The notes below the pieces were generated by a model. That model had not been told where the DNA came from. It worked only from the letters and a program-made list of their open reading frames with translations, and ran no database searches. The position numbers were made by a program, and so were the translations under genes. This document shows, in pieces, positions 4,184 to 44,045 of a stretch of DNA of 64,000 nt. Source of the DNA: an uncultured Candidatus Saccharibacteria bacterium (lineage in GTDB: Bacteria > Patescibacteriota > Minisyncoccia > Phycocordibacterales > UBA12088); NCBI GenBank assembly GCA_964411375.1, contig CAYPKR010000001.1, forward strand, positions 422,831 to 486,830. The letters run 5' to 3'. How positions within the stretch are numbered: the first letter of the stretch is position 1; the number at the start of each line of letters is the position of its first letter.

Positions 4184-4217
4184 GCACAAAAGACGGGCAT
4201 GCCCGTCTTTTGTGCTA
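4184..4217 (+). terminator. Rho-independent terminator downstream of the SurA-like gene.
   Basis: Perfect palindrome AGCACAAAAGACGGGCATGCCCGTCTTTTGTGCT followed by a T-rich stretch. Confidence 0.6.
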
Positions 4218-4244
4218 TTCAGGAGCGGTATATACTTATTTCAT

Positions 4245-5246
4245 ATGATGAACTCAAAAATATTGCTCCCCCTAGTGATTGTCGGTCTTCTTGGAGCCGC
4301 TGGATTTTATCTGCTCATGGGTAAGTCGGTACCCTCGAACACCTCGACTCCTGACGCAAAAAATACTTCATACATGATCGAAGGCGTATCAGTTACTCTA
4401 AAAGACGGCAAATCAGAAGTTGAAGCCGCGCCAGGTTCTGCATCGAAAATAACAACCACCGTATTTGGAGAGCCAACCGTTGGAGACTTGAATGGAGACG
4501 GTGTTCCCGACTCCGCAGTTATCCTCGTTCAAAATACTAGCGGTTCCGGTACGTTTTATTATGTTGCCGCTGCGCTTCAAACTACTGAGGGAATAAAGGG
4601 AACGAACGCGATCCTTCTGGGCGATCGGATCGCACCACAAACGCTCGAAATAAATGGTAGCGAAATCATTGCAAATTATGCTGATCGAAATGCAGGGGAG
4701 CCAATGACCACAAATCCGTCTGTCGGTGTTTCAAAATATTTGAAAGTAAACGGAATGCAGCTTAAGGAGATAGAAAATGGGCAATCAGATTCTTCCGAAG
4801 GAGTCACGAGTAGCAGTACAACCGCACCGGAAAAAATAACCAAGGATATGAACGAAAAAACCCTCTATTACAATGTGGGTGATCGGTTCAGTCTCACGCT
4901 TGGAGAAGAAACATGGGATATCGCAGTAAGTGATCCAACAATAATTAGTCGTGTAAAAAATATCGCAACGATTAAAGGAACGCAGGGAGTCTACACTGCA
5001 GACAAAGCAGGGAAGACCACGCTTTCTGGTCAAGGAAGACCGGTATGTCCACCAGATACAATGTGTGCCCAGTACATCATCGATTTCTCCGTACAAATTG
5101 TGGTGCTTGGAAAAAGTACTGCAGTTCCTGCAGGAACAGCAGGAGACACTGGCATTTGCACCGCTGATGCAAAAATGTGTCCGGATGGAAGTTATGTTGG
5201 ACGAGTCGGTCCGTCGTGCGAGTTTGCCGCATGTCCGGGAAATTAG
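4245..5246 (+). CDS. Membrane-anchored extracytoplasmic hypothetical protein with a Cys-rich C-terminus.
   Basis: Likely start is MMNSKILLPLVIVGLLGAAGFYLL (signal anchor); the upstream ATG at 4212 lies inside the terminator hairpin. C-terminus contains 8 Cys (CPPDTMC...CTADAKMCPDGS...CEFAACPGN). No recognisable family. Confidence 0.4.
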   Translation: MMNSKILLPLVIVGLLGAAGFYLLMGKSVPSNTSTPDAKNTSYMIEGVSVTLKDGKSEVEAAPGSASKITTTVFGEPTVGDLNGDGVPDSAVILVQNTSGSGTFYYVAAALQTTEGIKGTNAILLGDRIAPQTLEINGSEIIANYADRNAGEPMTTNPSVGVSKYLKVNGMQLKEIENGQSDSSEGVTSSSTTAPEKITKDMNEKTLYYNVGDRFSLTLGEETWDIAVSDPTIISRVKNIATIKGTQGVYTADKAGKTTLSGQGRPVCPPDTMCAQYIIDFSVQIVVLGKSTAVPAGTAGDTGICTADAKMCPDGSYVGRVGPSCEFAACPGN

Positions 5247-5701: not shown

Positions 5702-6580
5702 ATGAAAAGAATCGTTATGAGTTTGGGCGCAATCGTGTTTGTCGCTGCAGTTGCAGTCGGCGCAACCGGCGCGTTCTTCAATGATACAGAGACTTCGACT
5801 GGCAACACCTTCACCGCAGGCGCAATCGACCTCAGGGTTGATTCAACCCAGCACTACAACAACGCAGTTTGCGTGGTTGGACAAGCAAGCTCGACATGGC
5901 AGCTTGCACCGGGTGCGGTACTTGCGATTGACCAGTATCCAGTGATCGGCTCTCCGTGCGATGGCACATGGGCACTTACGGATCTCGGTCCAACATTCCA
6001 CTTCTTTAACTTCGGCGATGTAAAGCCTGAAGATCAGGGAGAGGACACGGTATCACTCCACATCGACAATAACCCCGCATGGGCATGCGCATACATCAAG
6101 ACAACTGGAAACAATGAGAATTCACTCATCGAACCAGAAGCAAGCGCAGGCGATGTAACCAATGATCCAAATGGCGGCGAGCTTGCGCAGAATATCCATG
6201 TATTCGCATGGCTCGACAACGCATCAACCTCAGGCGCTGTTGCCGGTGACAACATCTGGCAGGCAGGAGAATCAGTTCTCCAGACTCCCGTTGCACTCTC
6301 TGCACTTAATGCAACAACCACACTCACTCTTGCTGATGGTGGCACGGGCAATCCACTTCCAGGTGGCTCAACAAGCTACATCGGTCTCGGATGGTGCGCA
6401 GGTACGCTTAACGCAAGCATTCCAGGTTCATGGACTTGCGATGGTTCAACCATGGGCAATGAAACCCAGACTGACTCAGCAACCACGTCCGTATCCTTCT
6501 ACGTAGAGCAGGCTCGCAACAATGCAGATTTCCGCTGCGTTCCACAGGTAGAGGAAGTTGTTCCTAATCAACCCGAATAA
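5702..6580 (+). CDS. TasA/camelysin-like secreted protein with a SipW-cognate signal peptide (paralog 1).
   Basis: Start chosen at MKRIVMSLGAIVFVAAVAVGATGAFFNDTETSTGNTFTAGAIDLRVD, the hallmark SipW-cognate class signal and TasA N-terminus (AFFxDxExSxGNxFxAGxxDL). The upstream part of the 5579 ORF lies in an intergenic hairpin region. Confidence 0.7.
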   Translation: MKRIVMSLGAIVFVAAVAVGATGAFFNDTETSTGNTFTAGAIDLRVDSTQHYNNAVCVVGQASSTWQLAPGAVLAIDQYPVIGSPCDGTWALTDLGPTFHFFNFGDVKPEDQGEDTVSLHIDNNPAWACAYIKTTGNNENSLIEPEASAGDVTNDPNGGELAQNIHVFAWLDNASTSGAVAGDNIWQAGESVLQTPVALSALNATTTLTLADGGTGNPLPGGSTSYIGLGWCAGTLNASIPGSWTCDGSTMGNETQTDSATTSVSFYVEQARNNADFRCVPQVEEVVPNQPE

Positions 6581-7480
6581 GAATTAGATAATTCCCCGAT
6601 ATGAAAAAAATTCTGATTGGTGCCGCATCAATCGTACTCGTTGCCGCTGCAGCAGTTGGCGCAACTGGCGCATTTTTCTCCGATTCCGAAACGTCATCGG
6701 GAAATGTGTTCACTGCCGGCGCGATCGATCTCACCGTCGATTCAACGCAGCATTATAACAATGCAGTGTGTGTGATCGGTCCCGAGATTTCTTCGTGGCA
6801 GCTTGCGCCGGGCGCAGTTGAAGCGGGCGATCAGTATCCGGTAATCGGTTCTCCGTGCGATGGCACATGGGCTGAGACCAACCTTGGTCCAACGTTCCAT
6901 TTCTTCAACTTCGGCGATGTAAAACCTGCCGATCAAGGAGAAGACACGATATCACTCCATATCGAAAACAATTCGGCATGGGTATGTGCGTACATCAAAA
7001 CGACTGGCGACAATGAAAACGGCATCAACAATCCTGAATCAAAATCAGGAGATGTGACGAACGATCCATCGGGTGGCGAACTCGCAGAAAATATTCACGT
7101 ATTCGCATGGCTCGATAACGGTGTCGGCGGCGTGGATGACTCACGCCAAGCGGGCGACAACATCTGGCAGGCTGATGAACCAATACTCCAAGCTCCGCTT
7201 TCCTTAAGCGCCTTGAACGCAACGACGACGCTTACTCTTGCTGACTCAACAACCGGAAATGGTCCGCTTGCTGGCGGTACGACAAGTTTCATTGGTCTCG
7301 GATGGTGCGCAGGCACGCTTGTTGTAAATGGTCCCGGGAGCTGGTCATGCGATGGTTCAACCATGGGCAATGACACGCAGACCGATTCAGCAACAACATC
7401 TGTTTCATTTTACGTAGAGCAATCTCGTAATAACGCAAACTTCCGCTGTTCAAATGCAACGCTCGTTCATGTAACCGCAA
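5702..7480 (+). repeat. Tandem gene duplication: the ~880 bp N-terminal coding regions of TasA-like paralogs 1 and 2 are about 75-80% identical at the nucleotide level.
   Basis: Aligned stretches include GGCGCAATCGACCTCAGGGTTGATTCAACCCAGCACTACAACAACGCAGT versus GGCGCGATCGATCTCACCGTCGATTCAACGCAGCATTATAACAATGCAGT. Protein identity is near-complete across ~290 aa. Confidence 0.55.
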
Positions 7481-8142
7481 ATGATCTCGATCCAAATGGT
7501 CCGAACCCAGCAACGGTTCGACTCGATGGACTCGACAAGTGGTTCATGTACAACGACACGAATGACACTGTCGACAACACGCTCGGTACATTTGTTGCAG
7601 GACCAGGAACGCCGCCGTTTGGCGCAAACAGCATCCAGTTTGTACTTGCCGCAAGTCCGCTGGATCGAAAGAATATCGCGACGTATCAGTTTGCAGGAAC
7701 GCCACTCTCTTCGATCACCGAAATGAAGTACGGCGCGTACTCGCACTCGGGTGTTGCTGGACCGAATGAATCTCCGTATCTCAATTTCAACATTGATTTC
7801 ACGGGAAGCTCAGTCGTATTCCAGAAGCGCATCGCATACGTTCCAAGTCAAAATGGTGGAGTTCCGCAAGACACGTGGAACTCATTCGATACGATACAAA
7901 GCGGCAACGCGAAGTGGGTATATTCCGGCGCAACATGGCCAGCACCAAACGCGATTCCAGGAACGTCGCCAAAAACGTGGACCCAGATTCTTGCTGACTA
8001 TCCAAGCGCTCGGATTCTTCCAAGCGACAGCTGGCTTGGCATCCGCGTCGGCGAGCCAGGTCCAACCGGCTACATCGGTAATGTCGACTTCTTCACTATC
8101 GCAACGTCATCCGGACCGACGACGTACGACTTCGGAAATTAA
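6601..8142 (+). CDS. TasA/camelysin-like secreted protein with a SipW-cognate signal (paralog 2) and an extra ~220 aa C-terminal domain of unknown function.
   Basis: MKKILIGAASIVLVAAAAVGATGAFFSDSETSSGNVFTAGAIDLTVD. The first ~290 aa are near-identical to paralog 1, including DTVSLHIDNN/DTISLHIENN and SFYVEQ(A/S)RNNA(D/N)FRC. Confidence 0.7.
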   Translation: MKKILIGAASIVLVAAAAVGATGAFFSDSETSSGNVFTAGAIDLTVDSTQHYNNAVCVIGPEISSWQLAPGAVEAGDQYPVIGSPCDGTWAETNLGPTFHFFNFGDVKPADQGEDTISLHIENNSAWVCAYIKTTGDNENGINNPESKSGDVTNDPSGGELAENIHVFAWLDNGVGGVDDSRQAGDNIWQADEPILQAPLSLSALNATTTLTLADSTTGNGPLAGGTTSFIGLGWCAGTLVVNGPGSWSCDGSTMGNDTQTDSATTSVSFYVEQSRNNANFRCSNATLVHVTANDLDPNGPNPATVRLDGLDKWFMYNDTNDTVDNTLGTFVAGPGTPPFGANSIQFVLAASPLDRKNIATYQFAGTPLSSITEMKYGAYSHSGVAGPNESPYLNFNIDFTGSSVVFQKRIAYVPSQNGGVPQDTWNSFDTIQSGNAKWVYSGATWPAPNAIPGTSPKTWTQILADYPSARILPSDSWLGIRVGEPGPTGYIGNVDFFTIATSSGPTTYDFGN

Positions 8143-8163: not shown

Positions 8164-9489
8164 ATGAAAAAAATCCTCTTAAGCCTCGGATCCATCCTCT
8201 TCGTCGGCGCACTCTTGGCCGGCGGGACGGGCGCATTCTTGGCTGATTCGGGGAAGTCAACGGGAAATACATTCGCGAGCGGCGTCATCAATCTCAAAGT
8301 CGATAACGAAAGTTATGTCACCGACAATTGGGGCAAACTTATCTTCTCGACATCGACATCGTGGAATCTCTCTAATCTGGAAGGAAAATTATTCTTTAAT
8401 TTTCTCGACCTGAAACCGGGAGATATTGGCGAAGACACCATCTCGCTCCATGTGAACAACAATAACGCATGGGCGTGCATGAACGTAAGTGTGACGGCAA
8501 CGCCTGAAAATGGTCAGCCTGAACCAGAAGCCGCAGTGGATCCGACGGTCGGATCAAACGACGGCGAACTGCAGAATTATCTCCAGTTTGTATTCTGGGC
8601 AGATGATGGCGACAACGTCTTTGAAAAAGGAGAAGACGTTTTCAAAAAAGGATTGGTCAAAGATATTTTCAACGGAAAAAATTGGCCGATTGCCGATTCG
8701 AAGAACAATATCTGGAGCCAAAATGGTCCGCTCCTTCCGGAATATACCTACTACATCGGCAAAGCATGGTGCTTTGGAACAATGACCGAAGTACCGCTTC
8801 CGCAGGATGGGTTTAGTAAGAAGGGAAACAACGGACCTCTGCAGCGCGGAACCGGATTCACGTGTTCAGGCGTCGATGTTGGAAATATCGTGCAGTCTGA
8901 CGGAATTAAGGCAGATGTCTCATTCGCAGTCGCACAAGCACGAAATAATAATTCGTTCCTGTGTTCCGACGGAGGAGATCCAAAAAATCCGCCAACCGGA
9001 ACGTCCACAATATTTAGCGACAACTTCGAGAGTTACCAGAATGGGCATCGATGTGATGACGGCAAGGATGATAAAAATTGGGATCAACAGGGTGGCGTGA
9101 AGTTTGTATCGCTTGGCGGAGTACACAGCAAAGTTGCTGATCTCCAGAGCTCATCGGCAAACAATCACAAAGTCGTCATGATTTCATCCGGCATCAATTT
9201 GACTGGCTTCCACAACGTCACGCTTTCATACGATCGAAAGCTTGATGATGTTGATGCGCCGCCAGTTGGGACACAGAATTTGCTCGTCGAATTCAGTACA
9301 AACGGTGGGGGTTCATGGACAACACTTGAAAATGTTTCGGGTGAAGTAGATTGGACGACGAAGTCCTTCTCACTCTCGCCGAGTGCTGACAACAAGTCGA
9401 ATGTAAAACTTAGATTTACCTTTACGGGACAGGATGGTTCAAATCACGCATATATCGACAACGTGGTTGTAACCGCCGTCACTCCGTAA
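8164..9489 (+). CDS. TasA/camelysin-like secreted protein with a SipW-cognate signal (paralog 3) and a C-terminal beta-rich domain.
   Basis: MKKILLSLGSILFVGALLAGGTGAFLADSGKSTGNTFASGVINLKVD. Shares the motifs ISLHVNNNNAWAC, FVFWADDGDNVFEKGE and YIGKAWCFG with paralog 4. Confidence 0.65.
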   Translation: MKKILLSLGSILFVGALLAGGTGAFLADSGKSTGNTFASGVINLKVDNESYVTDNWGKLIFSTSTSWNLSNLEGKLFFNFLDLKPGDIGEDTISLHVNNNNAWACMNVSVTATPENGQPEPEAAVDPTVGSNDGELQNYLQFVFWADDGDNVFEKGEDVFKKGLVKDIFNGKNWPIADSKNNIWSQNGPLLPEYTYYIGKAWCFGTMTEVPLPQDGFSKKGNNGPLQRGTGFTCSGVDVGNIVQSDGIKADVSFAVAQARNNNSFLCSDGGDPKNPPTGTSTIFSDNFESYQNGHRCDDGKDDKNWDQQGGVKFVSLGGVHSKVADLQSSSANNHKVVMISSGINLTGFHNVTLSYDRKLDDVDAPPVGTQNLLVEFSTNGGGSWTTLENVSGEVDWTTKSFSLSPSADNKSNVKLRFTFTGQDGSNHAYIDNVVVTAVTP

Positions 9490-9524: not shown

Positions 9525-10955
9525 ATGAAAAGAATTCTCGGAAGCCTCACTGTCCTCACCGCCGTCGGGCTTCTTGCCATCGGTGCGACCGGAGCATTCT
9601 TCTCGGACTCGGAAGTCTCGAGCGCAAATACATTTGCCGCTGGAGCAATCGATCTCAAAATCGACAATCACGGTTACTATAATCACAACGAATGTAAGGA
9701 AGTAACCGCCGGAGTATTTCAGTGGGTTGGGCAAGCTGATTTCCCAGTCCCTGGAACTTCCTGCAGTGATTCGTGGAGTGTGACCGATCTTACGATCCAG
9801 AAGTTCTTCGATTTCACTGACATAAAGCCGGGCGATACCGGGGAAGATACAATTTCGCTTCATGTGAGCAACAACGACGCGTACATGTGCGCCAATGTGA
9901 AATTGACGTCAAACGACGACAATGGACTCACTGAACCGGAAGGGCAGATTGATCCAACTGATGGACCAGGAAATGGTGAACTCGCATCAAATGTAAACTT
10001 CGTGTGGTGGGCAGATGACGGCGACAATGTTCTTGAAGATAACGAAAAGGTTATCTCACAAGGACCAATCGGCGCGCTCGGATTAAACGGCTCGACAACC
10101 GTTCCGCTTGCCGACTCACAGAATAATATTTGGACGGGAACTCCAGGTCCGGTGCCGGGAGATCAAACACTCTACATCGGCAAAGCGTGGTGCTTTGGAA
10201 ACATCGGTGCTGCTCCTCTTGTACAAGATGGACTTGGCACGACGTCTCCACGCACTCCTGGAAATTCAACGGGTGGAATCACCTGCGATGGGCACTTGCT
10301 CGACAACTCAACGCAGACAGATAGTTTGACCGCAGATGTTACCTTTACCGCAGTTCAAGCTCGTCATAATTCTGATTTCCTCTGCACTCCACCAGTGCGC
10401 GAAAGTGGAGATTTGATCGTGACGAAAGTAGTCGTAAATAACAACGGCGGCAACAATGTCGTGAACGATTTCCATCTCTTTGTTGACGATGGATTTGTCT
10501 CGACTGCAATCATCTCTGGTGCAACGACTACGCTTCCTGCTGGAACATACAGCGTGAATGAAAGTGGAGATTCTGGTTACCAGGCTTCATTCTCCGGCGA
10601 TTGTGATCAAGATGGAAATGTTACGGTCACAAATGGTGGTGTAAAACATTGCACCATCACGAATACCGAACTTCCTGCGCACATCACGCTTACGAAAGTC
10701 GTGATTAATCATGGAGGAACGGCAACACCAAATTCCTTCACGATGCGCATTGATGGGGGTGCGAAAGTACCAAGTGGTTCATCAGTCGCTGTTACTTCAA
10801 ACGCACTTCACTCAATCAATGAAGATGCAAAGACGGGATATCACTTCGTCTCGATTACCGGCAGTCCAAAATGTCCGGCAGTCTTAGGCGGCACTGCAAT
10901 GCTTGATGAAGGTGAAACGATTTCGTGCACCATCACCAACGAGCAGAACCAATAG
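9525..10955 (+). CDS. TasA/camelysin-like secreted protein with a SipW-cognate signal (paralog 4) and two C-terminal CnaB/prealbumin-fold-like repeats.
   Basis: MKRILGSLTVLTAVGLLAIGATGAFFSDSEVSSANTFAAGAIDLKID. The C-terminus has two ~90 aa repeats (LIVTKVVVNNNGGNNVVNDFHLFVDDG...TYSVNESGDSGY and ITLTKVVINHGGTATPNSFTMRIDGG...GYHFVSITGSP). Confidence 0.65.
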   Translation: MKRILGSLTVLTAVGLLAIGATGAFFSDSEVSSANTFAAGAIDLKIDNHGYYNHNECKEVTAGVFQWVGQADFPVPGTSCSDSWSVTDLTIQKFFDFTDIKPGDTGEDTISLHVSNNDAYMCANVKLTSNDDNGLTEPEGQIDPTDGPGNGELASNVNFVWWADDGDNVLEDNEKVISQGPIGALGLNGSTTVPLADSQNNIWTGTPGPVPGDQTLYIGKAWCFGNIGAAPLVQDGLGTTSPRTPGNSTGGITCDGHLLDNSTQTDSLTADVTFTAVQARHNSDFLCTPPVRESGDLIVTKVVVNNNGGNNVVNDFHLFVDDGFVSTAIISGATTTLPAGTYSVNESGDSGYQASFSGDCDQDGNVTVTNGGVKHCTITNTELPAHITLTKVVINHGGTATPNSFTMRIDGGAKVPSGSSVAVTSNALHSINEDAKTGYHFVSITGSPKCPAVLGGTAMLDEGETISCTITNEQNQ

Positions 10956-10961: not shown

Positions 10962-12416
10962 ATGAAATTGATCTTCGCTACAATCCGATACTTGTTAATC
11001 GGAGGAGTCGTTCTCCTAACGCTCCTTCTTCTTGGCACACTCATGCCAATTCAAGGTGGGATAAAAGTGAAGATTGTGAAGTCTGGTTCGATGGAACCGA
11101 CGATTATGACGGGTTCGATTGTCATTATCAAACCCGAACCCGCATATTCGATCGGCGACATCATCACCTTCGGCAAAGATACCAAGACACAAATTCCGAC
11201 CACGCACCGCATTGTTGCGGTTTCGGGGTCGGGAGCATCGAGCGAGTTCCAAACAAAAGGGGACGCGAATGATGCTCCCGATCCGGTAGCAACTCGCATG
11301 AGTGATATTTCTGGAAAAGTAATTTTCCACGCATCCTACATCGGCTACATTCTTGATTTTGCGAGAAAGCCTCTCGGCTTCGCGCTTATTGTCGGCGTTC
11401 CAGCATTCGCAATCATTTTGGACGAGGTTATGAAGATAGTTGCAGAAGTCCGCCGTATGAGACGAGAGAAACGGAAAGCTGCTCCAGTTGTTCGTACAGA
11501 GGAAATTGCTCCGCCTCCACCACCACCAACTCCGCGCCGAAACGTTTCGTCTGATGGGATTATGAAAATGCAGCCTCCAGTTAGGGAGCCCGAGCATTTT
11601 CTAAAAACAGAACCGAAGGAGTCACATATATATGTAAAATCATTTACCGCAATGTTGTTTATTGTGGGTTCGCTTGCTGGAATTTCGTCAATCGGCGGGA
11701 CGAAAGCGTACTTCAATGATGTAGAAGTATCGATTGGCAATTTACTCAAAGCCGGACTCGTATCTCTCGTCATTTCAACCGACAATGATACCCTTGGTCG
11801 CGCCGCATTTGTACAAACACTCGATGCATCATCAAGCAACGAGACAAATAATGGAGAAACTCCCCCGAAGGAAGAATATGCAATTGGTAGTGATTTATTT
11901 TCAATCGATATTAATAAAGGAGATCAAAGTTTCCCACTGCAATATACGATTACACCAAAACTCGACGATGATGCGCCAAATGGTTGTAAGGAAATGACGC
12001 TTGAAGCATGGATCGGCGATTTTCACTGGAGTGGATTACTTACCGATTTCAATCTTCCTGCCACAACAACACTCGGACACCTGCAATTTTTGCTCACGAT
12101 TCCGGTACCAAATACACTCGCACCAAATGCTGAGTGTGGCGGCGCACTTATCTTCAAAGCCGGAATTGCCGGTGCACCGGATCCTTTGAAGCATGTATTT
12201 TCAGACACCAAAGAATATCGATTTGAAATTTTGAATAGTGAAACTACTCCAAGTGAGGAAGAAACTACAGAAGCGGATCAAGAATCTGGTAATCCAACCG
12301 AACCTAGTGCGTCCTCGAATGAGGCAGAAAATGCCAGCACTTCACCAGTCGGGGGAGAGGAAGCTCCCGCGGCAGAGGCAATTGATGGCTCTGTAGAGGC
12401 TCAAATAGAAGAATAA
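10962..12416 (+). CDS. sipW: Type I signal peptidase of the SipW (S26B, archaeal/ER-like) class. The same reading frame continues through a poly-Pro linker and a TM segment into a TasA-like domain.
   Basis: N-terminal TM segment, then KIVKSGSMEPTIMTGSIVIIKPEP (the catalytic Ser box, SGSMEPT) ...THRIVAV...KGDANDAPD (SipW C-box). After a second TM (PLGFALIVGVPAFAIIL) and PPPPPPTPRR, there is a third hydrophobic segment followed by GGTKAYFNDVEVSIGNLL, a SipW-cognate/TasA-like N-terminus. No stop codon separates the two parts. Confidence 0.7.
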   Translation: MKLIFATIRYLLIGGVVLLTLLLLGTLMPIQGGIKVKIVKSGSMEPTIMTGSIVIIKPEPAYSIGDIITFGKDTKTQIPTTHRIVAVSGSGASSEFQTKGDANDAPDPVATRMSDISGKVIFHASYIGYILDFARKPLGFALIVGVPAFAIILDEVMKIVAEVRRMRREKRKAAPVVRTEEIAPPPPPPTPRRNVSSDGIMKMQPPVREPEHFLKTEPKESHIYVKSFTAMLFIVGSLAGISSIGGTKAYFNDVEVSIGNLLKAGLVSLVISTDNDTLGRAAFVQTLDASSSNETNNGETPPKEEYAIGSDLFSIDINKGDQSFPLQYTITPKLDDDAPNGCKEMTLEAWIGDFHWSGLLTDFNLPATTTLGHLQFLLTIPVPNTLAPNAECGGALIFKAGIAGAPDPLKHVFSDTKEYRFEILNSETTPSEEETTEADQESGNPTEPSASSNEAENASTSPVGGEEAPAAEAIDGSVEAQIEE

Positions 12417-12498: not shown

Positions 12499-12942
12499 AT
12501 GAGAAAGAAGGGAATAGCGATAGTAGTCAGTATAACTGCGCTCGTAGCAGTTTTTATTTTGTATGTAGAGCGCAGCGCGCTGTACGCCACTTTGGATTCG
12601 CTTCACCTTATTCCTCACGAAGAACCGCTGACGGAGTTGTATTTTGAATCACCACTCCCGACGCTCCGCACCATCGGTGCAGATGATCGTACTTCGTTTT
12701 CTTTCACCATCCATAACTTGGAAGGAAGAGGAATGAACTACGAATATCACGTGTATGCGGTAACAACGAATGGTACGACGACCATTGAGCGCGGTTCGGT
12801 AAGTGTTCGAGCACTCGAATATGTTACGAGAAAGGAATCAATCCTTTTTGTAAAAGCGACACCGCAAGCAGAAATTTTTGTCGAATTACTTCCGCCGATC
12901 AATGAAATGATTCATTTCAAACTCATACGTACCGGCACATAA
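12499..12942 (+). CDS. Small membrane-anchored hypothetical protein.
   Basis: N-terminal TM IAIVVSITALVAVFILYV followed by a beta-rich soluble domain. No recognisable motifs. It sits at the head of the glycosyltransferase operon. Confidence 0.35.
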   Translation: MRKKGIAIVVSITALVAVFILYVERSALYATLDSLHLIPHEEPLTELYFESPLPTLRTIGADDRTSFSFTIHNLEGRGMNYEYHVYAVTTNGTTTIERGSVSVRALEYVTRKESILFVKATPQAEIFVELLPPINEMIHFKLIRTGT

Positions 12943-12969: not shown

Positions 12970-13728
12970 ATGGCAGTTCCCCGCCAAAAAATTACCGCAC
13001 TCATCCCATGCTACAACGAAGCAGAGGGTATTAAATCTGTGATCGAAAGTTTTCCGCTCGCGGAACTCAATCAATATGGTTTTGATGTTGAAATCGTTAT
13101 TATCGATAATAATTCAACGGACGGTACCGCCGCGATTGCTCGCTCTCTTGGTGCAACAGTGATTCATGAGCCGAAAAAAGGAAAGGGAAATGCAATGCGC
13201 ACCGGATTTTTCTCAATATCTGATGACACGGATTTTGTCGTGATGCTCGACGGTGACGACACCTATCGTCCGGAAGAAATTCTTCGAATGGTTGAACCGC
13301 TTAAAGCTGGATTTGCCGATGTCATCATTGGATCTCGCCTCAGCGGTAAGATCAAAGAAGGTTCCATGAAAGGACTGAATCGTCTTGGCAACTGGACGTA
13401 TTCATTTTTAGTGCGCATTTTCTATCAAGTAAATGTCACAGACGTACTGACTGGATATTTTGCATGGAAAACAGAAGCACTTGAACGTCTTCGTCCACAT
13501 TTGCACTCCGAAGGTTTTGCAATCGAGATGGAAATGGTTACCAAAATGGCACGACTTGGCCAGGAAATCTATTCGGTACCAATCAGCTATCACCCACGTG
13601 CTGGCGAGAGTAACTTGAGCCCAATCTATGATGGTGCACGCATCATGACTATGTTCACCAAAAATCTCTTCTGGAGCCCTGTACCATGGAGATTCTTCCG
13701 TCCTCGCTTCTTCCGCAGGGGCGCCTAG
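12970..13728 (+). CDS. Family 2 glycosyltransferase, dolichyl-/polyprenyl-phosphate sugar transferase-like.
   Basis: ALIPCYNEAEGI, VIIDNNSTDGTAAIA and MLDGDDTY (DxD) motifs of GT2/GT-A. Confidence 0.75.
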   Translation: MAVPRQKITALIPCYNEAEGIKSVIESFPLAELNQYGFDVEIVIIDNNSTDGTAAIARSLGATVIHEPKKGKGNAMRTGFFSISDDTDFVVMLDGDDTYRPEEILRMVEPLKAGFADVIIGSRLSGKIKEGSMKGLNRLGNWTYSFLVRIFYQVNVTDVLTGYFAWKTEALERLRPHLHSEGFAIEMEMVTKMARLGQEIYSVPISYHPRAGESNLSPIYDGARIMTMFTKNLFWSPVPWRFFRPRFFRRGA

Positions 13729-13738
13729 AAGAAAGTGC

Positions 13739-15568
13739 ATGAAAATTGTTTCCGTATCACATTACTACACCCCGCATATCGGCGGACTCGAAATCGTCGC
13801 ACGTAAGTTGGCGCGCAGTTTGACTGCTTCCGGCCACGAGGTTTCGATTGTCACTTTTAAAACTGATCCTATTCCAAGCGTGTCAGTAGAAGAGGGCGTG
13901 ACTGTATATCGTGTTCGCGGTCTCAATTTTTTTGATACCTATTTTGGTATCCCGTTTCCAATTGGCGGAATCGGACTTTTTTCAAGACTCTTTCGTGAGA
14001 TACAAACTGCAGACGCGGTGCACCTCCATGATGTTTTTTATCAGTCGTCTTGGATCGCCTATTTTTTTGCCAGGCTTTTGGGAAAGCCGCTCATTCTGAC
14101 TCAACACGTTGGAATAGTTGAACATCCAAGCGCTATCGTTATGGGGATTCAGAAAGCAGTCTATCGCGCGATTGGACGAATGATTTTTGCGTTCGCTGAA
14201 ACTATTATTGTATACAACCGAAATGTCCGTACCTTCTTGGAAAAAGAAGGGGTGCCAACGGGGAAAATTATCGAACTTCGAAATGGAATCGACACGAATA
14301 CATTCTGTCCAATTGATAGAGCACTTCGAAAAGAGAAGCGTCAGGCGCTCGGGCTTCCCGCGGACCGTCCACTCGCGCTTTTTGTTGGTCGCTTTGTGCC
14401 GAAGAAAGGATTTACCGAAGTATATGGCGCGCGTGATCCAAAATATGATCTAGTTTTTGTTGGAAGTGGTAATTTTCCCGAGGAATACAAAAAAACTAAC
14501 GGTGTCTATTGTCTGGGACCAAAAAACCAAACAGAACTCGCTCTAATCTACCCGCTCGTCGATTTCTTTGTATTTCCTTCAAAAGGAGAAATGTTTACGC
14601 TGGTGATGCAGGAGGCGATGGCAGCAGGACTTCCTATTGTCACCACCAATGAACCTGGCTATGCGGAATATAATCTCGATCAAACACTTATCACATTTGT
14701 TGAGCCAAAAGCAGAATCTCTCAAAACGACAATGACTAAACTGGTTGATGATCCGGAACTGCTCCAAAAAATGGGTGCGTACTCGCGCGCACTTGCGGTT
14801 GAGCGATTTGATTGGGATACCAATATTAGTCCACTACTTTCAATCTATGCGGATATTGCCAAAAGAAAGAGGGTAATCGTTACGACAAGTTGGGACGATG
14901 GTCATATTCTTGATCTCAAGCTCGCAGATCTTCTTCGAAAATATTCCGTAGGTGGAACATTTTATATTTCGCCTCGCGATCATGAAATTATTCCGGAAAA
15001 GCGTCTCTCGAATGAGCAAATCAGAAGTCTCCTTCCGGATTTTGAAATTGGTGCGCACACGATGACCCATCGCCCGCTTCCAACTATTTCGGATGATGCG
15101 GCAAACGAGGAAATTATTACTTCCAAAAAATATCTTGAGGAAGTAATTGGAGGACCGGTCACGAGCTTTTGTTACCCACGCGGTGAATACACACCGACAC
15201 ATGCAATAATGACGAAGCAGGCCGGCTTTCACCTTTCGCGCACGGTTGCTCGTTTTTCATACGACACTGGTTCAAATCCATTTGAACTTCCGACTTCAGT
15301 TCATACGTACGATCACTTCTCTGATGTTTGGGGTGTACTTCGCCTTGCAAAATTCAATCCAATGCGTTTCTTGAAGTTGTATCGCAACTGGGAAGCACAA
15401 GCGATCGCTATGTTTGATGCAGTCTCAAAACGCGGCGGCATATTCCATTTGTGGGGACACAGTTGGGAAGTAGACGATCATAATGATTGGAATCGACTTG
15501 AGCGAGTACTTCAGTATGTCGGGGGCAGGGCGAATGTTTCGTATGTAGCGAACAGAGAACTGGTATGA
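13739..15568 (+). CDS. Bifunctional protein: GT4 glycosyltransferase fused to a polysaccharide deacetylase (NodB-homology) domain.
   Basis: The N-terminus is GT4-like (HYYTPHIGGLE ... EAMAAGLPIVTT). The C-terminal ~230 aa carry VIVTTSWDDGHILDLKLADLL (the NodB motif TxDDG) and HTMTHRPL (His-His metal site). Confidence 0.75.
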   Translation: MKIVSVSHYYTPHIGGLEIVARKLARSLTASGHEVSIVTFKTDPIPSVSVEEGVTVYRVRGLNFFDTYFGIPFPIGGIGLFSRLFREIQTADAVHLHDVFYQSSWIAYFFARLLGKPLILTQHVGIVEHPSAIVMGIQKAVYRAIGRMIFAFAETIIVYNRNVRTFLEKEGVPTGKIIELRNGIDTNTFCPIDRALRKEKRQALGLPADRPLALFVGRFVPKKGFTEVYGARDPKYDLVFVGSGNFPEEYKKTNGVYCLGPKNQTELALIYPLVDFFVFPSKGEMFTLVMQEAMAAGLPIVTTNEPGYAEYNLDQTLITFVEPKAESLKTTMTKLVDDPELLQKMGAYSRALAVERFDWDTNISPLLSIYADIAKRKRVIVTTSWDDGHILDLKLADLLRKYSVGGTFYISPRDHEIIPEKRLSNEQIRSLLPDFEIGAHTMTHRPLPTISDDAANEEIITSKKYLEEVIGGPVTSFCYPRGEYTPTHAIMTKQAGFHLSRTVARFSYDTGSNPFELPTSVHTYDHFSDVWGVLRLAKFNPMRFLKLYRNWEAQAIAMFDAVSKRGGIFHLWGHSWEVDDHNDWNRLERVLQYVGGRANVSYVANRELV

Positions 15569-17796
15569 GCACAGAAACCCGCACAATAGCGATCGTCTCC
15601 CCATACTTTCCGCCAGCCGCTGGCGGTCTTGAACGATATGCATCCGAGATTGCAAATCTTCTCCATACAGAACATGGATACCGCATCGTTGTCCTAACTT
15701 CAGGAGAAAAGGGAGGTGCGGATGTTCAAGAAGTAAGAGACGGCTATACGGTGTATCGACTCGGCTATTCGTTTAAAGTATCGAACACGCCGTTTTCATT
15801 CGCATGGTTTGGAAAGGTGCGACGAATTTTACAAAAAGAATCACCGGATGTTGTTCATATTCATACACCAGTTCCAGGAATCGGTGATATTGCCGCATTT
15901 TTTGCGCGAGTACCCGTTGTTGTGACCTATCACGCAAGTACCATGCGAAAAGGAAAGGGTAATAGTATCGTAAACATGATTATCGCGGGATACGAAAAGA
16001 TACTGCTTCCGTTTCTTCTTAGTAAGGCAGAAAAAATCATTTGCGCGTCCGACTTTATTCGCGACGACTTTCTCAGTGCATACAAAGAAAAAAGTATCAC
16101 TCTCACACCTGGTGTATATCCAGAGCATTTCACCCCAAACGCATTTTTGAAATCAAAATCACCAACTATTCTTTTTGTTGCTGGACGCATTGGCCGAACT
16201 GATACCTATAAAGGACTCGATACCCTTCTTGATGCGATGGCGCTCGTTTCAAAAAAGGTGCCAAGTGCACGGCTCGTTGTCGTTGGAGACGGCGACATGC
16301 TCTATGAATATGAAATGCGCGCAGAGCGACTCACCCCAGGCATTGTTTCCTTTACGGGTACGCTCCATGGAGAAATGTTGACGGCTGAATATCAAAAAGC
16401 ACATGTGCTTGCGCATCCATCGAGAAATGAAAGTTTCGGTATGGTTATTCTTGAAGCAATGGCGACCGAACTTCCCGTTGTCGCAACGAATGTCGGTGGA
16501 ATTCCAACGCTTCTTCAGGACGGAAAAACAGGTTTCCTCGTTCCTCCAGGTAATTCTGAAATGCTCGCCGAAAAATTGATCGAAGTACTTACTGATCATG
16601 AGCTTTCTGCCGCGCTTGGCAAAAACGGACGACTCCGTGCAATCGAAAACTATTCATGGAGTGGTCGCGCAACTACATATCACACTATATTTGAATCGTT
16701 CATTCGTCCGGAGATTGTGCATGCCGTCGGATATTATCCACCGCATATCGGTGGAATGGAGCGTGTCGCCGAAACCATCTCAAAACTTCTCGCAAAAGAT
16801 AATTGGCGAGTCCGTGTACTAACTTCGAACGGCTCACTTAGAGGTGAAGTGGAGCGGAGTGAAAACCTCGTCGTCAAAAGACTTGCGTCATTTGAGTTTG
16901 CACATACACCAATTGCACCAAGCCTTCCTTTTCACCTTTTTTCAATTTCAAAGAGAAGCATCATTCACCTACATCTCTCGCAGGCATTTTGGCCGGAATG
17001 GATTCTTCTTGTTTCAAAACTTCGGGGCATTCCGTACGTGCTACACCTGCATCTCGATGTAGCGCCGTCTGGCCCCCTTGGTCCACTCTTCCTCATCTAC
17101 AAAAAAATGATATGGGGTCCAGTAATCCGAAACGCATCGCTTGTTATCGCGTGTTCTGATGATCTTGCTCGTATGGCGGTCGAAGTATATGGAGCAAAGA
17201 AAACCAAACTTGAGATCATGCCAAACGCGGTAAATGATAATTTCTTTTCTGCTCGAGCCTATACGGTTCCTGCCGATCGTCTACGCTTGCTTTCAATTGG
17301 ACGACTTGCGCCACAGAAAAAAACAGAGCGTCTCGTCAAAATGATGCCGCTCCTCAAAATTCCCGCTGAATTAATTATTGCGGGAGACGGGGAAGATCGC
17401 GCTACGCTTGAGGCATTGGTTCGCGGCGAGAAAATTCCAAACGTCACATTTGTCGGTGAGAAAAATGATGCCGAGATGCGCGCTCTCCACGAGGCGGCAG
17501 ATGCATTTGTGATTGCGTCCGATAGGGAAGGACGTCCGCTCGCGGTTCTTGAAGCAATGGCGGCGGGGCTTCCCATTATTGCGTCTGATGTGGTAGGAAA
17601 TCATGAGCTCGTAGGGGGGGTAGGTATTCTTGTTTCTCCTCCAACCCCTGAAGCATTTGCGACCGCAATCAATACTCTTTGGCAAAATAAAGAGTCGTTG
17701 GAGACATTGTCGAAGCGAAGCGTAAAGCGGGCGAGTGAAGCAACGTGGGATTCGGTCATCCGACGTCTCGAAAATATATATACTACGCTCATATGA
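15565..17796 (+). CDS. Tandem double-GT4 glycosyltransferase.
   Basis: Two complete GT4 units, each ending in an EX7E-type donor motif region (EAMATELPVVATNVGG and EAMAAGLPIIASDVVG). The start overlaps the previous stop (ATGA). Confidence 0.75.
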   Translation: MSTETRTIAIVSPYFPPAAGGLERYASEIANLLHTEHGYRIVVLTSGEKGGADVQEVRDGYTVYRLGYSFKVSNTPFSFAWFGKVRRILQKESPDVVHIHTPVPGIGDIAAFFARVPVVVTYHASTMRKGKGNSIVNMIIAGYEKILLPFLLSKAEKIICASDFIRDDFLSAYKEKSITLTPGVYPEHFTPNAFLKSKSPTILFVAGRIGRTDTYKGLDTLLDAMALVSKKVPSARLVVVGDGDMLYEYEMRAERLTPGIVSFTGTLHGEMLTAEYQKAHVLAHPSRNESFGMVILEAMATELPVVATNVGGIPTLLQDGKTGFLVPPGNSEMLAEKLIEVLTDHELSAALGKNGRLRAIENYSWSGRATTYHTIFESFIRPEIVHAVGYYPPHIGGMERVAETISKLLAKDNWRVRVLTSNGSLRGEVERSENLVVKRLASFEFAHTPIAPSLPFHLFSISKRSIIHLHLSQAFWPEWILLVSKLRGIPYVLHLHLDVAPSGPLGPLFLIYKKMIWGPVIRNASLVIACSDDLARMAVEVYGAKKTKLEIMPNAVNDNFFSARAYTVPADRLRLLSIGRLAPQKKTERLVKMMPLLKIPAELIIAGDGEDRATLEALVRGEKIPNVTFVGEKNDAEMRALHEAADAFVIASDREGRPLAVLEAMAAGLPIIASDVVGNHELVGGVGILVSPPTPEAFATAINTLWQNKESLETLSKRSVKRASEATWDSVIRRLENIYTTLI

Positions 17797-20141
17797 CCTT
17801 CCGTCTGACACAAAAGCATATCTTTTTGGGAACTACTATTTGGTGGGGAACTTTCTTGATCCTTTCCATCTTTCAGATCAATCCATTTCAAATTCAGAAC
17901 ATCGTTGGCATAAGCGCACTTCTCATCCTTCCCGGTCTTCTCACTATTATTCTGCTCGGACTCATTAATCTTGAGTGGTGGGGCAAGATTATGCTTATTC
18001 TCTCAATCAGTATTCTTGAAATCATTGGCGTCGGACTTTTCGTCAATGAACTATTCCCGCACATCGGCATCAATCGCCCGCTTGAAGCATCCCCAGTACT
18101 TCTTACATTAACGATGCTCATTGTATCCCTGCTTCTCTTGGTATATATCCGAGTGCGTGAGATTGATCTTTCGCTGAAGAAATATATTGTCTTTGATTCG
18201 ATCCTCGACACTTTTGTTGCGCTCTTTCCAGCAATCTTCACGCTTCTTGCGTTTCTCGGTTCGATCAGTATCAACAATGGTGGCAGTAATCTTTGGACGA
18301 TCGGCATGCTCGTCGGCATTGGGGTATATGCGTTTATTCTCATCAAGTATCACAAACGCCTCGGGGAAAATGTTATTCCGGTCGCGCTTTTTTTCATCTC
18401 ACTTTCGCTCCTCTTCATGACGTCGCTTCGAAGTTGGTACATCAGCGGGCATGATATTCAGCGTGAATATCGCGTATTCCAGCTCGCAAAAGATGCCGGC
18501 CTCTGGTCAATCGCCAACTACAAAGACGCATATAACGCATGCATGTCGATAACCATTCTGCCGACGATATTGAGCAACCTCCTCAATCTTTCTGATCAAT
18601 ACATATATAAGACGCTCTTCCAGATCATATTTGCAACCGTTCCGAGCGCGATCTTCCTGATTGCTCGTCGCTATGTATCCGGTGCAGCCGCGCTTACTGC
18701 GGCGGTATATTTCATCGCGTTTCCAACTTTCTTCACCGACATGGCATTCTTGAATCGACAAGAAATCGCCTTTCTTTTCTTGGTGGTGATGTTCTACACG
18801 ATTTGGAGCGACTCGATTATGCTCCACACCAAGAGAATCCTCTTCACCTTTTTGGGAGTGGGCTTGGTGCTCTCCCATTACTCGACCACCTACATCGTCA
18901 TTGGACTGTTAGGATTTTTGGTCACGGCACGCCCATTCTATCTATGGCTTACTAAGCGCCTACGATCATTCAAGTGGTTCCAAAATTCTGGTGTTGCTGC
19001 CCTCGAAGAGAATCATGTATCGGCACGAAATATCACGGTGGGTATGGTGGTATTTCTTGCGGCTGCAAGCTTCGTCTGGAGCAGTGTCTTAACTGATACG
19101 TCCTCGAACAGCATTTACCGTGTCGTGACCGAAACGATTCACGTGATGCAACACAATGCAAAAGAGGATTCTCGCTCAAACGATGTACTCTACAGTCTCT
19201 TTTCGTGGCGGGTGAGTGATCCGGCAACCGATTTTGAAACCTACAAAAAAACGGTGGTTGCGCCGCTTCGTGCAGAAATGCCTGACGCGTTTTATCCTGA
19301 CGGAACCTATTCGGACGATTCGATTCACTTGGTCGAAGAAACGCTTCTTCCGCTCACCGCGCTCGGTAAGGCGGTTGAAAATGAGGGAATCAACGTACCG
19401 CAATTTAACTTCCTTTTTAGGCAGAGTTCTGCAAAACTCTTGCAGATATTCATCTTGATCGGTGTTGTCGCCGTATTTGTCACCAGACGATTCGTATCGA
19501 AACCGCTGCCAGATGAATTTATGCTCCTCGTGGGCGGAAGCATTTTGCTTATTCTCTCACAGGTACTCTTGCCCGTCTTGTCAGTCGAATACGGACTTCT
19601 TCGCGCCTTCCAGCAATCACTCATTTTCCTCGGCATCTTTGTCGTTATCGGTAGTGAAGTGATCTTCATGTGGTCGAAGAAAACAACAATGATTGCCGGC
19701 ACGATTGCGGTTGTATTTCTTCTGTCATCAACCGGTGTGTTCACGGAAGCGCTTGGAGGATATATGCCGCAGATGCATCTTGAAAATCGCGGTGTGTATT
19801 ATGATGTGTTCTACGAACACCGAGGCGAAGGTGTCGGTATCGATTGGCTCGTGTCTCGAATGCGTTCCAATGATGGCTATACACTCCAGTCATCAACGCA
19901 GTCTGACCGCTATTCATCGAGTAAACTTCCAATTTTGACCAAGGTAGATATCTTGAATGACATTTACCCGGGCATCGTTCAAAAAAATGCATACATCTTT
20001 TTGGGATATACCAATATTAAAAAAGGGGAAGTGGCGCTCTCATACCAAGGAGACACGCTTTCGTATGTCTATCCGCTAAACTTCTTGGATGATCACAAAG
20101 ATCTTATCTACGTGAATCAGGGGGTAAAAATATATCGATGA
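17793..20141 (+). CDS. Large polytopic membrane protein (>12 TM helices) with a C-terminal extracytoplasmic domain. Putative GT-C-type glycosyltransferase or glycan polymerase (DUF2206-like).
   Basis: The start MTFRLTQ overlaps the upstream stop (ATGA). Many TM helices, an SGHDIQREY loop motif, and a ~250 aa soluble C-terminal domain. The gene is embedded between glycosyltransferases. Confidence 0.5.
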   Translation: MTFRLTQKHIFLGTTIWWGTFLILSIFQINPFQIQNIVGISALLILPGLLTIILLGLINLEWWGKIMLILSISILEIIGVGLFVNELFPHIGINRPLEASPVLLTLTMLIVSLLLLVYIRVREIDLSLKKYIVFDSILDTFVALFPAIFTLLAFLGSISINNGGSNLWTIGMLVGIGVYAFILIKYHKRLGENVIPVALFFISLSLLFMTSLRSWYISGHDIQREYRVFQLAKDAGLWSIANYKDAYNACMSITILPTILSNLLNLSDQYIYKTLFQIIFATVPSAIFLIARRYVSGAAALTAAVYFIAFPTFFTDMAFLNRQEIAFLFLVVMFYTIWSDSIMLHTKRILFTFLGVGLVLSHYSTTYIVIGLLGFLVTARPFYLWLTKRLRSFKWFQNSGVAALEENHVSARNITVGMVVFLAAASFVWSSVLTDTSSNSIYRVVTETIHVMQHNAKEDSRSNDVLYSLFSWRVSDPATDFETYKKTVVAPLRAEMPDAFYPDGTYSDDSIHLVEETLLPLTALGKAVENEGINVPQFNFLFRQSSAKLLQIFILIGVVAVFVTRRFVSKPLPDEFMLLVGGSILLILSQVLLPVLSVEYGLLRAFQQSLIFLGIFVVIGSEVIFMWSKKTTMIAGTIAVVFLLSSTGVFTEALGGYMPQMHLENRGVYYDVFYEHRGEGVGIDWLVSRMRSNDGYTLQSSTQSDRYSSSKLPILTKVDILNDIYPGIVQKNAYIFLGYTNIKKGEVALSYQGDTLSYVYPLNFLDDHKDLIYVNQGVKIYR

Positions 20142-37363: not shown

Positions 37364-38005
37364 ATGGAAATATATAAAGTAAGAAAAAATCAATATTTAT
37401 GGGGAGGTCTATTTTTTGGCATAATCCTGGTCGCTCTTAGCATCTCCTTGATTGGTGAAGGATCTATCGAAAGAACTAAATTCTTAGGGTTAATTGGATT
37501 TTGGGCCATAGCAATTATCCTGACTCTTGCCCCGTTTGGTTTTAAGTTAGAGGTAGGAGAAGATTACGTAAAAACATTTTTTTTGGGATTCTGTCTAAGA
37601 TACTTAAAGCGCGAAAATATTGAAGTCATTGAATATGGAAATTTGATGCGTGGCGGGGGATTGGGTTATGGAAAAGGCTTGAAAGGTTGGGAAAGAACTA
37701 AGAGAGGAAATCGAAAGTATTTTAGTATCGGGGAAGATGCTTATGGTAAGGGAGCAATGAAAGGCATTGCTCGTGCTCTTAGTAAAGACTCTCTACTTGA
37801 AAATAAGTTTAAGAACCAGGATCCCCATAAGGAAATTGATAGTAAAAAGAAAGTTCAGATAGCCATGATATGGACTGCTGGCTCGATAATAGGTTTCTTT
37901 CTTTTGCTTAATTATGCTCAAAATACAAAATTCGCCATTCTTATTCCGATTTCTATTCTCTCGTTAATTATTTCAATGGTGTATTTAATTAAGGCCAAGA
38001 GTTAA
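37364..38005 (+). CDS. Putative cognate immunity protein: four-TM membrane protein with a central bPH-like soluble domain.
   Basis: Starts 1 nt after the toxin stop. TM helices GLFFGIILVALSISLIG, LIGFWAIAIILTLAPFGF, two C-terminal helices, and a central Gly/Lys-rich domain. Position and topology fit immunity to a membrane-targeting toxin. Confidence 0.45.
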   Translation: MEIYKVRKNQYLWGGLFFGIILVALSISLIGEGSIERTKFLGLIGFWAIAIILTLAPFGFKLEVGEDYVKTFFLGFCLRYLKRENIEVIEYGNLMRGGGLGYGKGLKGWERTKRGNRKYFSIGEDAYGKGAMKGIARALSKDSLLENKFKNQDPHKEIDSKKKVQIAMIWTAGSIIGFFLLLNYAQNTKFAILIPISILSLIISMVYLIKAKS

Positions 38006-39777: not shown

Positions 39778-39821
39778 GGATGACGCTGATCCATGGGGGA
39801 GTCAAGGATTTTCTGGTATAT

Positions 39822-40241: not shown

Positions 40242-40327
40242 CCGCGCTCTTCACCGTCAATCTTTACGGACTTCTGTTAGTATTGCATGTTATGGACTGG
40301 ATATGCCCTATATGATATACTTCAAGC

Positions 40328-40990: not shown

Positions 40991-40994
40991 TTCT

Positions 40995-41228: not shown

Positions 41229-41280
41229 TTTTGTTGGTAACCCCTCTTCGCAAATTCTTGGGATCTGCTAGGGTACTGAC

Positions 41281-41505: not shown

Positions 41506-41514
41506 TTCGTCGGT

Positions 41515-43806: not shown

Positions 43807-44045
43807 ATGTATTTTTTAGGAATTAATCGACTCCGGAGTCGGAGAGTAGAGGAACATTCCTCAACTCATACATATAAGTATGCGCGCGAAAACCTATTTT
43901 TAATTGGGAGCGCTTCATTTTTCACTTTGTCTGGAATGCTCCTAAATAGGGGATTATACGGAATGAAATTTTGCACGAATTTTTTGCCACGAAAATATTA
44001 CTCTGACAATATATTCAAATTTCTGGGAGATGTAGACTAAATTGC

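Follow-up and report, generated by a model that had tools for sequence, protein, structure and literature searches.

Introduction

In Bacillus subtilis, the tapA-sipW-tasA operon combines a dedicated signal peptidase of the archaeal/endoplasmic reticulum (ER) type with TasA-fold fibre subunits. TapA, the minor component, occurs at a SipW-like abundance, and the stop codon of tapA overlaps the start of sipW (PMC10151520). The protein has a long signal peptide of 43 amino acids (aa), a donated N-terminal strand, a complete immunoglobulin (Ig) domain and a disordered C-terminus. Its residues 44–57 alone suffice for biofilm formation, and the donor strand reads AFHDI in TapA and AFNDI in TasA (PMC10151520). 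The exact function of TapA is still unclear (PMC9245690), and its functional or structural association with SipW has so far been hinted at only by the overlap of the two genes (PMC10151520). How TasA-type fibres nucleate and attach to the cell is an unsettled question. It is addressed by the gene described here, which lies at 10962..12416 of a 64,000-nucleotide (nt) stretch of contig CAYPKR010000001.1 from a Patescibacteria genome (the window). The gene encodes an active-looking SipW-type peptidase fused in frame to a segment with the peptidase's own substrate signature.

The locus in the window shares much with the Bacillus operon. In both cases, a dedicated archaeal/ER-type peptidase accompanies subunits of the TasA fold whose common site is T-x-A|[AF]-F-x-D, the vertical line marking the cleavage position. 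Both also have, beside sipW, a candidate minor component with the same strand motif, an Ig-type domain, a disordered acidic C-terminus and an overlapping gene arrangement. The systems differ in that the minor component is here part of the same polypeptide as the peptidase, following its C-terminus after an additional cytoplasmic linker and a third transmembrane (TM) segment, or is encoded downstream by an overlapping gene, and in that the gene order is here subunits-sipW-module.

Similar sets of genes are known from other organisms. The sipW-calY1-bc1280-calY2 operon of Bacillus cereus and the sipW-bsaA-bsaB-bsaC operon of Clostridium perfringens likewise combine SipW with several TasA-like paralogues and accessory proteins, and share donor-strand assembly at or near the membrane; a peptidase-substrate fusion is not described there. 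The archaeal bundling pili (ABP), with their subunit AbpA and putative initiator AbpB, also have a TasA-fold subunit and donor-strand complementation, but the ABP operon lacks a dedicated peptidase gene and shows no fusion. TasA homologues (PF12389) have already been noted in Patescibacteria in the literature. Beyond that note, our search of the literature, which was incomplete, found no prior description of a SipW-substrate fusion, of a sipW-module pair or of a TasA system in the Candidate Phyla Radiation (CPR).

A SipW-like peptidase with an in-frame C-terminal extension

According to the preliminary description of the window, no stop codon separates a SipW core from a substrate-like C-terminal part. 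This is the case: the two parts are encoded by a single in-frame open reading frame (ORF). The 484-aa product contains each of the elements originally listed, namely the SGSMEPT, HRIV and GDAND core, a second TM helix, a PPPPPPTPRR linker, a third hydrophobic segment and, following the latter, the stretch GGTKAYFNDVEVSIGNLLKAG (residues 244–264). The reading frame was checked by comparing assemblies rather than reads. An independent Logan assembly of SRR12487045 contains the same 3455 nt, the fusion gene with 1 kb on either side, without a single difference. In addition, the closest homologue, which is 67% identical and belongs to a syntenic operon, is also fused. An assembly frameshift is ruled out by the identity of the independent assembly and by the fused orthologues.

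The N-terminal half is an archaeal/ER-type signal peptidase (MEROPS S26B) according to model TIGR02228 (sigpep_I_arch), whose cutoff of 51.85 bits is exceeded by a match of 97.5 bits to residues 12–157. The catalytic set, S43, H82 and D101, in which a His box replaces the Lys of LepB-type enzymes, is invariant in the best 120 homologues and in the family alignment. Hydropathy analysis predicts N- and C-terminal anchors that flank an extracytoplasmic catalytic domain, with a basic stretch after the second anchor, TM2. Against the SipW equivalog model NF046067, the protein scored 100.7 bits, below the cutoff of 190. Judged by its sequence, the peptidase is SipW-like and not an equivalog of the Bacillus enzyme. 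In databases, the proteins of the fusion family are labelled merely 'signal peptidase I'.

In the predicted topology, TM1 would run from inside to outside and place the catalytic domain outside; TM2 would lead back in, leaving the basic linker in the cytoplasm, and TM3 would lead out again to an acidic ectodomain. The peptidase active site and the TasA-like signal had been proposed to lie on one side of the membrane; both the hydropathy and the distribution of charges agree with this and make it the outer face.

Fused and split loci in Patescibacteria

A search of 5.8 billion clustered proteins returned 284 relatives of the fusion protein. In the best 120 of these, the SGSMEP, TTHRI and KGDAN boxes are invariant throughout. 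Nearly all of the 120 continue beyond TM2 with the basic stretch, a variable linker of 40–110 aa, a third hydrophobic segment and the motif G-[ST]-x-[SA]-Y-[FY]-x-[DNQ]-x-E-x-S-x-x-N. A scan of genomes, one per GTDB species, with patterns specific to the CPR peptidase family returned 193 relatives, and the locus counts given below cover the best 80 of them, each a species representative. All 80 are Patescibacteria, mostly of the Paceibacteria group (Zambryski-, Nomura-, Kaiser-, Lloyd-, Taylor-, Adler- and Yonathbacteria, and Minisyncoccia).

The state of each locus was assigned using a hidden Markov model of the region comprising TM3 and the motif. By this measure, 32 loci are fused and 41 are split. 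In five the peptidase stands by itself, and contig ends cut off the remaining two. In all 41 split loci, the motif-bearing ORF starts at the end of sipW in another frame, commonly overlapping the sipW stop codon. Most of the 80 loci have one to three TasA-like genes upstream. The conserved unit is thus [TasA-like subunits]-sipW-[motif module], the last two being fused or overlapping. Uniformly separate genes in orthologous loci would have spoken against a genuine fusion; the 32 fused loci stand beside 41 split ones, and the clade of the window is uniformly fused.

Locus states cluster on a neighbour-joining tree built from the peptidase core and require at least ~11 changes, as compared to ~25 with shuffled labels, a count that gives only the order of magnitude as the tree is weak and based on ~137 residues. 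In split loci, the break falls on either side of a short element of the linker (VSSDGIM in the window protein), and several independent events are indicated because the break point can lie on either side of this element. In a number of split loci (L009, L015, L025, L044, L032, L054, L056 and others), the break comes right after a Lys/Arg-rich stretch, which is A-rich at the DNA level. Programmed frameshifting may give a fused product in split loci.

The linker element was found in fused and split forms alike, between TM2 and TM3. Described as [MLVIF]-D-[GDELIN]-[IVLM], often followed by x-x-P, it occurs in 30 of the 76 linkers, 8 times as often as in shuffled sequences (3.8 expected), using an expression that omits the S-D-G-I variant of the window protein itself. 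A universal motif was considered and rejected, the element being enriched but, by this expression, not present in every linker. Terra et al. are said to have reported in 2012 that the SipW of B. subtilis is bifunctional, its C-terminal tail having a peptidase-independent role in the formation of surface biofilms. This would be a precedent for an additional function in the cytoplasmic C-terminal part of a SipW; the tail comprises ~20 residues, whereas the fusion continues into a further TM segment and an exported domain.

The domain that follows the motif in the window protein also occurs in both states, being 36–38% identical in fused (L004, L005) and split (L015, L017, L044) loci. Among 1.84 billion representative proteins, it was found in ~30 standalone and five fused clusters. 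Some of the standalone orthologues have an N-terminal extension of 40–60 aa before the TM segment, with the same linker element. Others (P0254, P0262) have an ordinary short signal peptide and therefore appear to be plain secreted substrates.

A predicted internal SipW-type cleavage site

The third hydropathy peak of the window protein is centred on residues 232–237 and is followed by a sequence with the layout of a SipW-type site: a hydrophobic region, Thr at −3, a small residue at −1, an aromatic residue or Ala at P1', an aromatic residue at P2', and Asp. In the window protein this reads T247-K-A249|Y250-F251-N-D253, beside a SipW-type peptidase; T247 and Y250 are invariant in the family alignment. 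Unlike the usual N-terminal signal, this one is internal, beginning at residue 225 after a complete peptidase. In the 41 split loci, it is N-terminal, in a separate ORF.

The preliminary description had noted that the signature is shared with the four TasA-like genes upstream. Consistent with this, these genes carry T-G-A|F-F-S/N-D-x-E, and a profile-profile comparison (hhalign) matched the internal signal and first strand to the upstream paralogues with 91.9% probability, over 42 columns only. Module and subunit sites differ consistently, being T-[VIL]-S|Y-F and T-G-A|F-F, respectively. The internal site is also in register with the experimentally defined sites of TasA (mature protein 28–261, AFNDI) and TapA (A44, AFHDI).

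We compared the site between the two states. Thr occupies −3 in 31 of 33 fused and 37 of 39 split loci. The frequencies of Ser, Ala or Gly at −1, Tyr at P1', Phe or Tyr at P2', Asp at P4' and Glu at P6' are similar in fused and split proteins, and of 28 fused proteins, 27 have a Gly or Pro helix breaker between positions −7 and −4. Residue conservation thus points to a cleavage site that is not relaxed after fusion.

The C-terminal module

To describe the C-terminal part, we used an AlphaFold2 (AF2) model of residues 245–484. In this model, the motif strand is unstructured, the core is a confident β-sandwich (block-mean predicted local distance difference test score, pLDDT, of 88–97 over most of it) and the tail is disordered. 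The Ig-like domain has a length of ~125 aa and a generic fold. The part had been described as about 250 aa of TasA-like domain followed by an acidic tail. The acidic tail stands. The TasA-like domain does not: the resemblance to TasA is limited to the signal and ~20 residues at the start of the mature part, and the rest is Ig-like. The C-terminal part had no match to PF12389, its similarity to the upstream TasA-like genes is confined to the 42 columns of signal and first strand, and the fold search with the AF2 model did not identify a TasA-type fold. The best fold matches of the domain were to chaperone-usher pilins and adhesins, and were weak. A profile of the module had no match among PDB sequences even at E ≤ 10.

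The layout of the module is that of TapA: a long SipW-type signal, a TasA-like strand, an Ig-type domain, an acidic disordered C-terminus and a gene abutting sipW. By this analogy, the C-terminal part is best read as a distinct minor component that is TapA-like in layout, and not as a TasA subunit.

The region after the motif varies among homologues, comprising the window-type domain, a Lamin Tail Domain (LTD; PF00932) or an acidic/Pro-rich tail of ~40–60 aa. In P0047, P0053, P0076 and others, the unit of peptidase, TM3 and motif is followed by an LTD (54–59 bits). The payload appears to be modular because the LTD replaces the window-type Ig-like domain in other lineages. Moreover, since the following domain varies, TM3 and the strand motif would be what selection keeps fused to the peptidase. 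The short-tail fusions, which consist of the motif and a short tail only (P0030, P0049, P0072), match the minimal unit of TapA, residues 44–57.

The upstream subunits and the operon

The genes upstream of the fusion gene encode TasA-fold subunits, as judged from structural modelling (Table 1). The signal peptide of the first, MKRIVMSLG..., begins at 5702, the mechanical ORF call beginning at 5579 with TTG. The AF2 model of its product (5702–6577; pLDDT 76), which served as the positive control for the fold search, had the TasA fibre 8aur as its best match (E 4.9e-5, probability 1.00), followed in second place by AbpA of archaea (7ueg). At the level of sequence, comparison of the upstream subunits with solved structures yielded no homology. 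The first product has 1363 homologues and is 55–89% identical among the best 120; it is likely the major subunit. The extra C-terminal domains on the products of 8164–9489 and 9525–10955 suggest specialised or adhesive subunits in one fibre system.

Directly downstream of the fusion gene, a glycosylation cluster at 12970–22504 (+) encodes a GT2 protein, a GT4 protein with a polysaccharide deacetylase domain, two double-GT4 proteins and a DUF2206 membrane protein. The cluster is syntenic in the closest relative (L001) and is not generally linked to the module; its products could glycosylate the fibre or the envelope. Two flanking ORFs, of 147 aa (12499–12942) and 344 aa (4212–5246), were considered as parts of the system and set aside, being conserved only in the closest relative.

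Table 1. Features of the fusion gene and of the upstream genes, in coordinates of the window. Residue numbers (res) refer to the fusion protein; domain, topology and cleavage assignments are predictions.
Feature	Position (nt)	Strand	Evidence and remarks
TasA-fold fibre subunit	5702..6580	+	PF12389 25.7 bits, TIGR04088 24 bits; simplest and most conserved paralogue
TasA-like paralogue with C-terminal extension	6601..8142	+	PF12389 and TIGR04088 above cutoff; 75% identical to first paralogue over core
TasA-like paralogue with C-terminal Reelin-subrepeat-like domain (23 bits, below cutoff)	8164..9489	+	41% identical to first paralogue over core; PF12389 18 bits, below cutoff
TasA-like paralogue with C-terminal SpaA_2 prealbumin-like domains	9525..10955	+	PF12389 28.6 bits, PF19403 45.2 bits, TIGR04088 20.5 bits
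Fusion gene	10962..12416	+	484 aa and stop codon; single ORF
TM1, N-terminal membrane anchor of the peptidase, res 7–28	10980..11045	+	hydropathy peak KD19 2.39 centred on res 21
Extracytoplasmic catalytic domain, SipW-type (S26B) signal peptidase, res 29–135	11046..11366	+	TIGR02228
Ser box SGSMEPT, res 41–47	11082–11102 (S43 = 11088–11090)	+	motif
His box TTHRIV, res 80–85 (H82)	11199–11216	+	motif
GDAND (D101), within KGDAND, res 99–104	11259–11273	+	motif
TM2, C-terminal anchor typical of SipW/archaeal-type peptidases, res 136–160	11367..11441	+	hydropathy peak centred on res 147; GFxLLVGxPA conserved
Predicted cytoplasmic linker, res 161–224	11442..11633	+	RRMRREKRK basic stretch, Pro run; K+R 14 vs D+E 9
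Linker element VSSDGIM, res 195–201	11544–11564	+	kept in the 67%-identical orthologue
TM3, internal SipW-type signal-like segment, res 225–249	11634..11708	+	c-region SSIGG-T247-K-A249; predicted cleavage after A249 (nt 11708|11709)
TasA/TapA-type N-terminal strand motif YFNDVEVSIGNLLKAGLVSLV, putative donor strand, res 250–270	11709..11771	+	family-conserved Y-F-x-D-x-E-x-S-x-x-N-x-x-x-A; unstructured in monomer AF2 model
Ig-like β-sandwich domain, res ~307–429	11880..12248	+	two family-invariant Cys (C342, C392); preceded by low-confidence spacer, res 271–306
Acidic disordered C-terminal tail, res 430–484	12249..12413	+	0 K/R and 16 D/E over res 431–484; pLDDT about 50

Other features of the window

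An Rfam scan of the window found nothing relevant to the fusion locus. Its sole match was a LOOT RNA (RF03000, 70.6 bits against a gathering threshold of 46.4) at 41342–41458 (+), between the gene of a large serine recombinase with Resolvase, Recombinase and Zn_ribbon_recom domains (38002–39777, −) and that of a ParB_N and N6/N4 DNA methylase fusion (42463–43806, −). The region 38002–43806 resembles an integrated mobile element. The GC content is 0.53–0.55 at 44001–48000 and ~0.45 elsewhere; this region, whose genes encode an HlyD-like membrane-fusion protein (44823–46352) and an MFS transporter (47077–48555), was possibly acquired horizontally. A giant ORF of 2497 aa (29869–37362, +) encodes an SpvB domain and FG-GAP repeats, and its product resembles Tc-toxin/teneurin-like surface proteins.

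Shine-Dalgarno (SD) sequences are nearly absent from the window, a 4-mer SD core being present at −20 to −4 in two of the 43 ORFs of ≥200 aa. Several genes abut or overlap, for example at 13739/13728, 15565/15568 and 20138/20141.

Discussion

We propose that the fusion gene encodes a polyprotein, composed of a SipW-like peptidase and a TapA-like minor subunit (initiator or cap), in a TasA-type fibre operon of a bacterium of the Paceibacteria group (CPR/Patescibacteria). We give this proposal a probability of roughly 0.55. In the proposed mechanism, TM3 would re-export the C-terminal part beyond the ~64-aa cytoplasmic linker, and the peptidase domain, acting in cis or from a neighbouring molecule, would cut after A249, freeing a protein of ~235 aa that begins with YFNDVEVS. 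The open groove of a TasA-like subunit would then receive the new N-terminal strand. By giving a donor strand without offering a groove, the released, possibly tethered, module would start the fibre or cap the groove end, and would do so at the site of subunit processing. Fusion or gene overlap would enforce 1:1 synthesis and co-localisation of the peptidase and a low-abundance component. The role as initiator or cap is one that we infer from the TapA-like layout. A polyprotein is the most economical reading because the site residues are equally conserved in fused and split proteins, and because the same orthologue appears elsewhere as a plain secreted substrate.

Precursors of a related design occur in flaviviruses and hepaciviruses, the structural polyproteins of which contain internal signal peptides that are cut by ER signal peptidase (SEC11, of the same S26B family). 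These are likewise multi-spanning precursors with an internal hydrophobic segment and a (−3,−1) site that is cut on the trans side. They differ in that the peptidase is a separate host enzyme, whereas the enzyme is here the N-terminal part of the precursor.

Several points weigh against cleavage and a TapA-like role. We infer processing at A249|Y250 from the conservation of the site, and TIGR04088 scored the internal signal (residues 234–257) at 15.8 bits, below the cutoff of 19, as compared to 20–24 bits for the upstream genes. The uncharged span of TM3 has a family median of 27 residues, and of 23 in the window protein, as compared to 20 in the upstream signal peptides. This length is compatible with a stable membrane anchor; the values being intermediate, TM3 length was set aside as a means of telling a cleaved signal from an anchor. 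A conserved linker element would be unneeded in a throw-away signal peptide, which hints that TM3 and the linker may have a function of their own. The analogy to TapA rests on layout and genomic context, with no sequence or specific fold homology, and TapA (PDB 6HQC/6QAY) was absent from the fold-search matches of the module. Finally, the weakness of the peptidase tree bears on how often fusion can be said to have evolved.

In a different reading, TM3 would be a stable signal-anchor that is not cleaved, so that the donor strand and Ig-like domain stay tethered to the peptidase. The longer uncharged span and the linker element, conserved in fused and split forms, would both fit an anchor, as would the 40–60-aa extension that precedes the TM segment in some standalone orthologues. 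According to the literature, moreover, TapA co-localises with the membrane, and oligomers of C. perfringens BsaA appear to be membrane-anchored before SipW acts. The tethered strand would fill the groove of the cell-proximal TasA-like subunit and serve as a terminator or anchor, like PapH, FimI or the basal pilin of sortase-assembled pili. Alternatively, it would be a chaperone-like placeholder, displaced by the next processed subunit. In either role, a single protein, the fusion, would be the site of both processing and assembly. The likeness is to the chaperone-usher systems, in which a non-polymerising protein (the chaperones PapD and FimC, the terminators PapH and FimI) supplies or occupies a β-strand position in the groove of a pilin and so begins, holds or halts assembly. 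Overall, we consider an uncleaved anchor unlikely, if the most serious competitor: true substrates show the same conservation of the small residues at −3 and −1, the aromatic residues at P1' and P2' and the helix breaker, which an anchor would not obviously need, and standalone orthologues such as P0254 and P0262 have ordinary short signal peptides.

Slightly more doubtful is a specific form of this reading, in which the uncleaved fusion would be a minimal, single-polypeptide pilus assembly site that processes subunits, holds the cell-proximal groove, templates polymerisation and anchors the fibre. If true, an ultra-small CPR cell with little wall would have made an 'usher plus chaperone/terminator' from a signal peptidase, and the recurrence of the fusion would also be Rosetta-stone evidence for a SipW/TapA-like complex in all TasA-type systems, including that of Bacillus.

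A further alternative to the polyprotein is an internal start, such as the ATG of M231 (nt 11652), from which the C-terminal module would be translated on its own, in addition to the full-length fusion or in its place, the fusion being mostly an annotation effect of a lost stop codon. The preliminary description saw no obvious internal start with a ribosome-binding site, and left unmentioned an AAGGAG at 11615–11620, which precedes this in-frame ATG just inside TM3. A Met occurs near the start of TM3 in many homologues, and the module is a separate overlapping gene in 41 of the 80 relatives. The AAGGAG carries no weight, however, as SD sequences are barely used in this genome (two of 43 ORFs) and the hexamer occurs at chance frequency, 18 times on the + strand. 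Furthermore, the 67%-identical orthologue has no AAGGAG and no in-frame start codon, either ahead of TM3 or inside it, a signal peptide initiated at M231 would lack a charged n-region, and the linker is conserved as protein in the fused frame (VSSDGIM). Independent translation is therefore improbable.

The last alternative, an assembly or sequencing artefact or the decaying, pseudogene-like read-through of two genes, might be expected from the frequency of split, frame-shifted arrangements among the relatives and from a break that sits after an A-rich, Lys/Arg-coding stretch, but can be dismissed, given the same DNA in an independent assembly, a window clade that is fused throughout, and, in 32 species-level representatives and many metagenomic clusters, fused ORFs that are intact and in which the catalytic and site residues are invariant.

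Beyond the choice between a cleaved polyprotein and a tethered one, the sequence evidence implies that the peptidase and a TapA-like component act together at the membrane, in a 1:1 ratio. Joint action is implied because the fusion is natural and repeatedly evolved, because both states exist for the same orthologue, and because it is found in dozens of species-level lineages. The data also indicate that the genomes of many Paceibacteria, for whose episymbiotic way of life surface structures are central, contain a fibre system of the TasA type that is distinguished by its assembly module.

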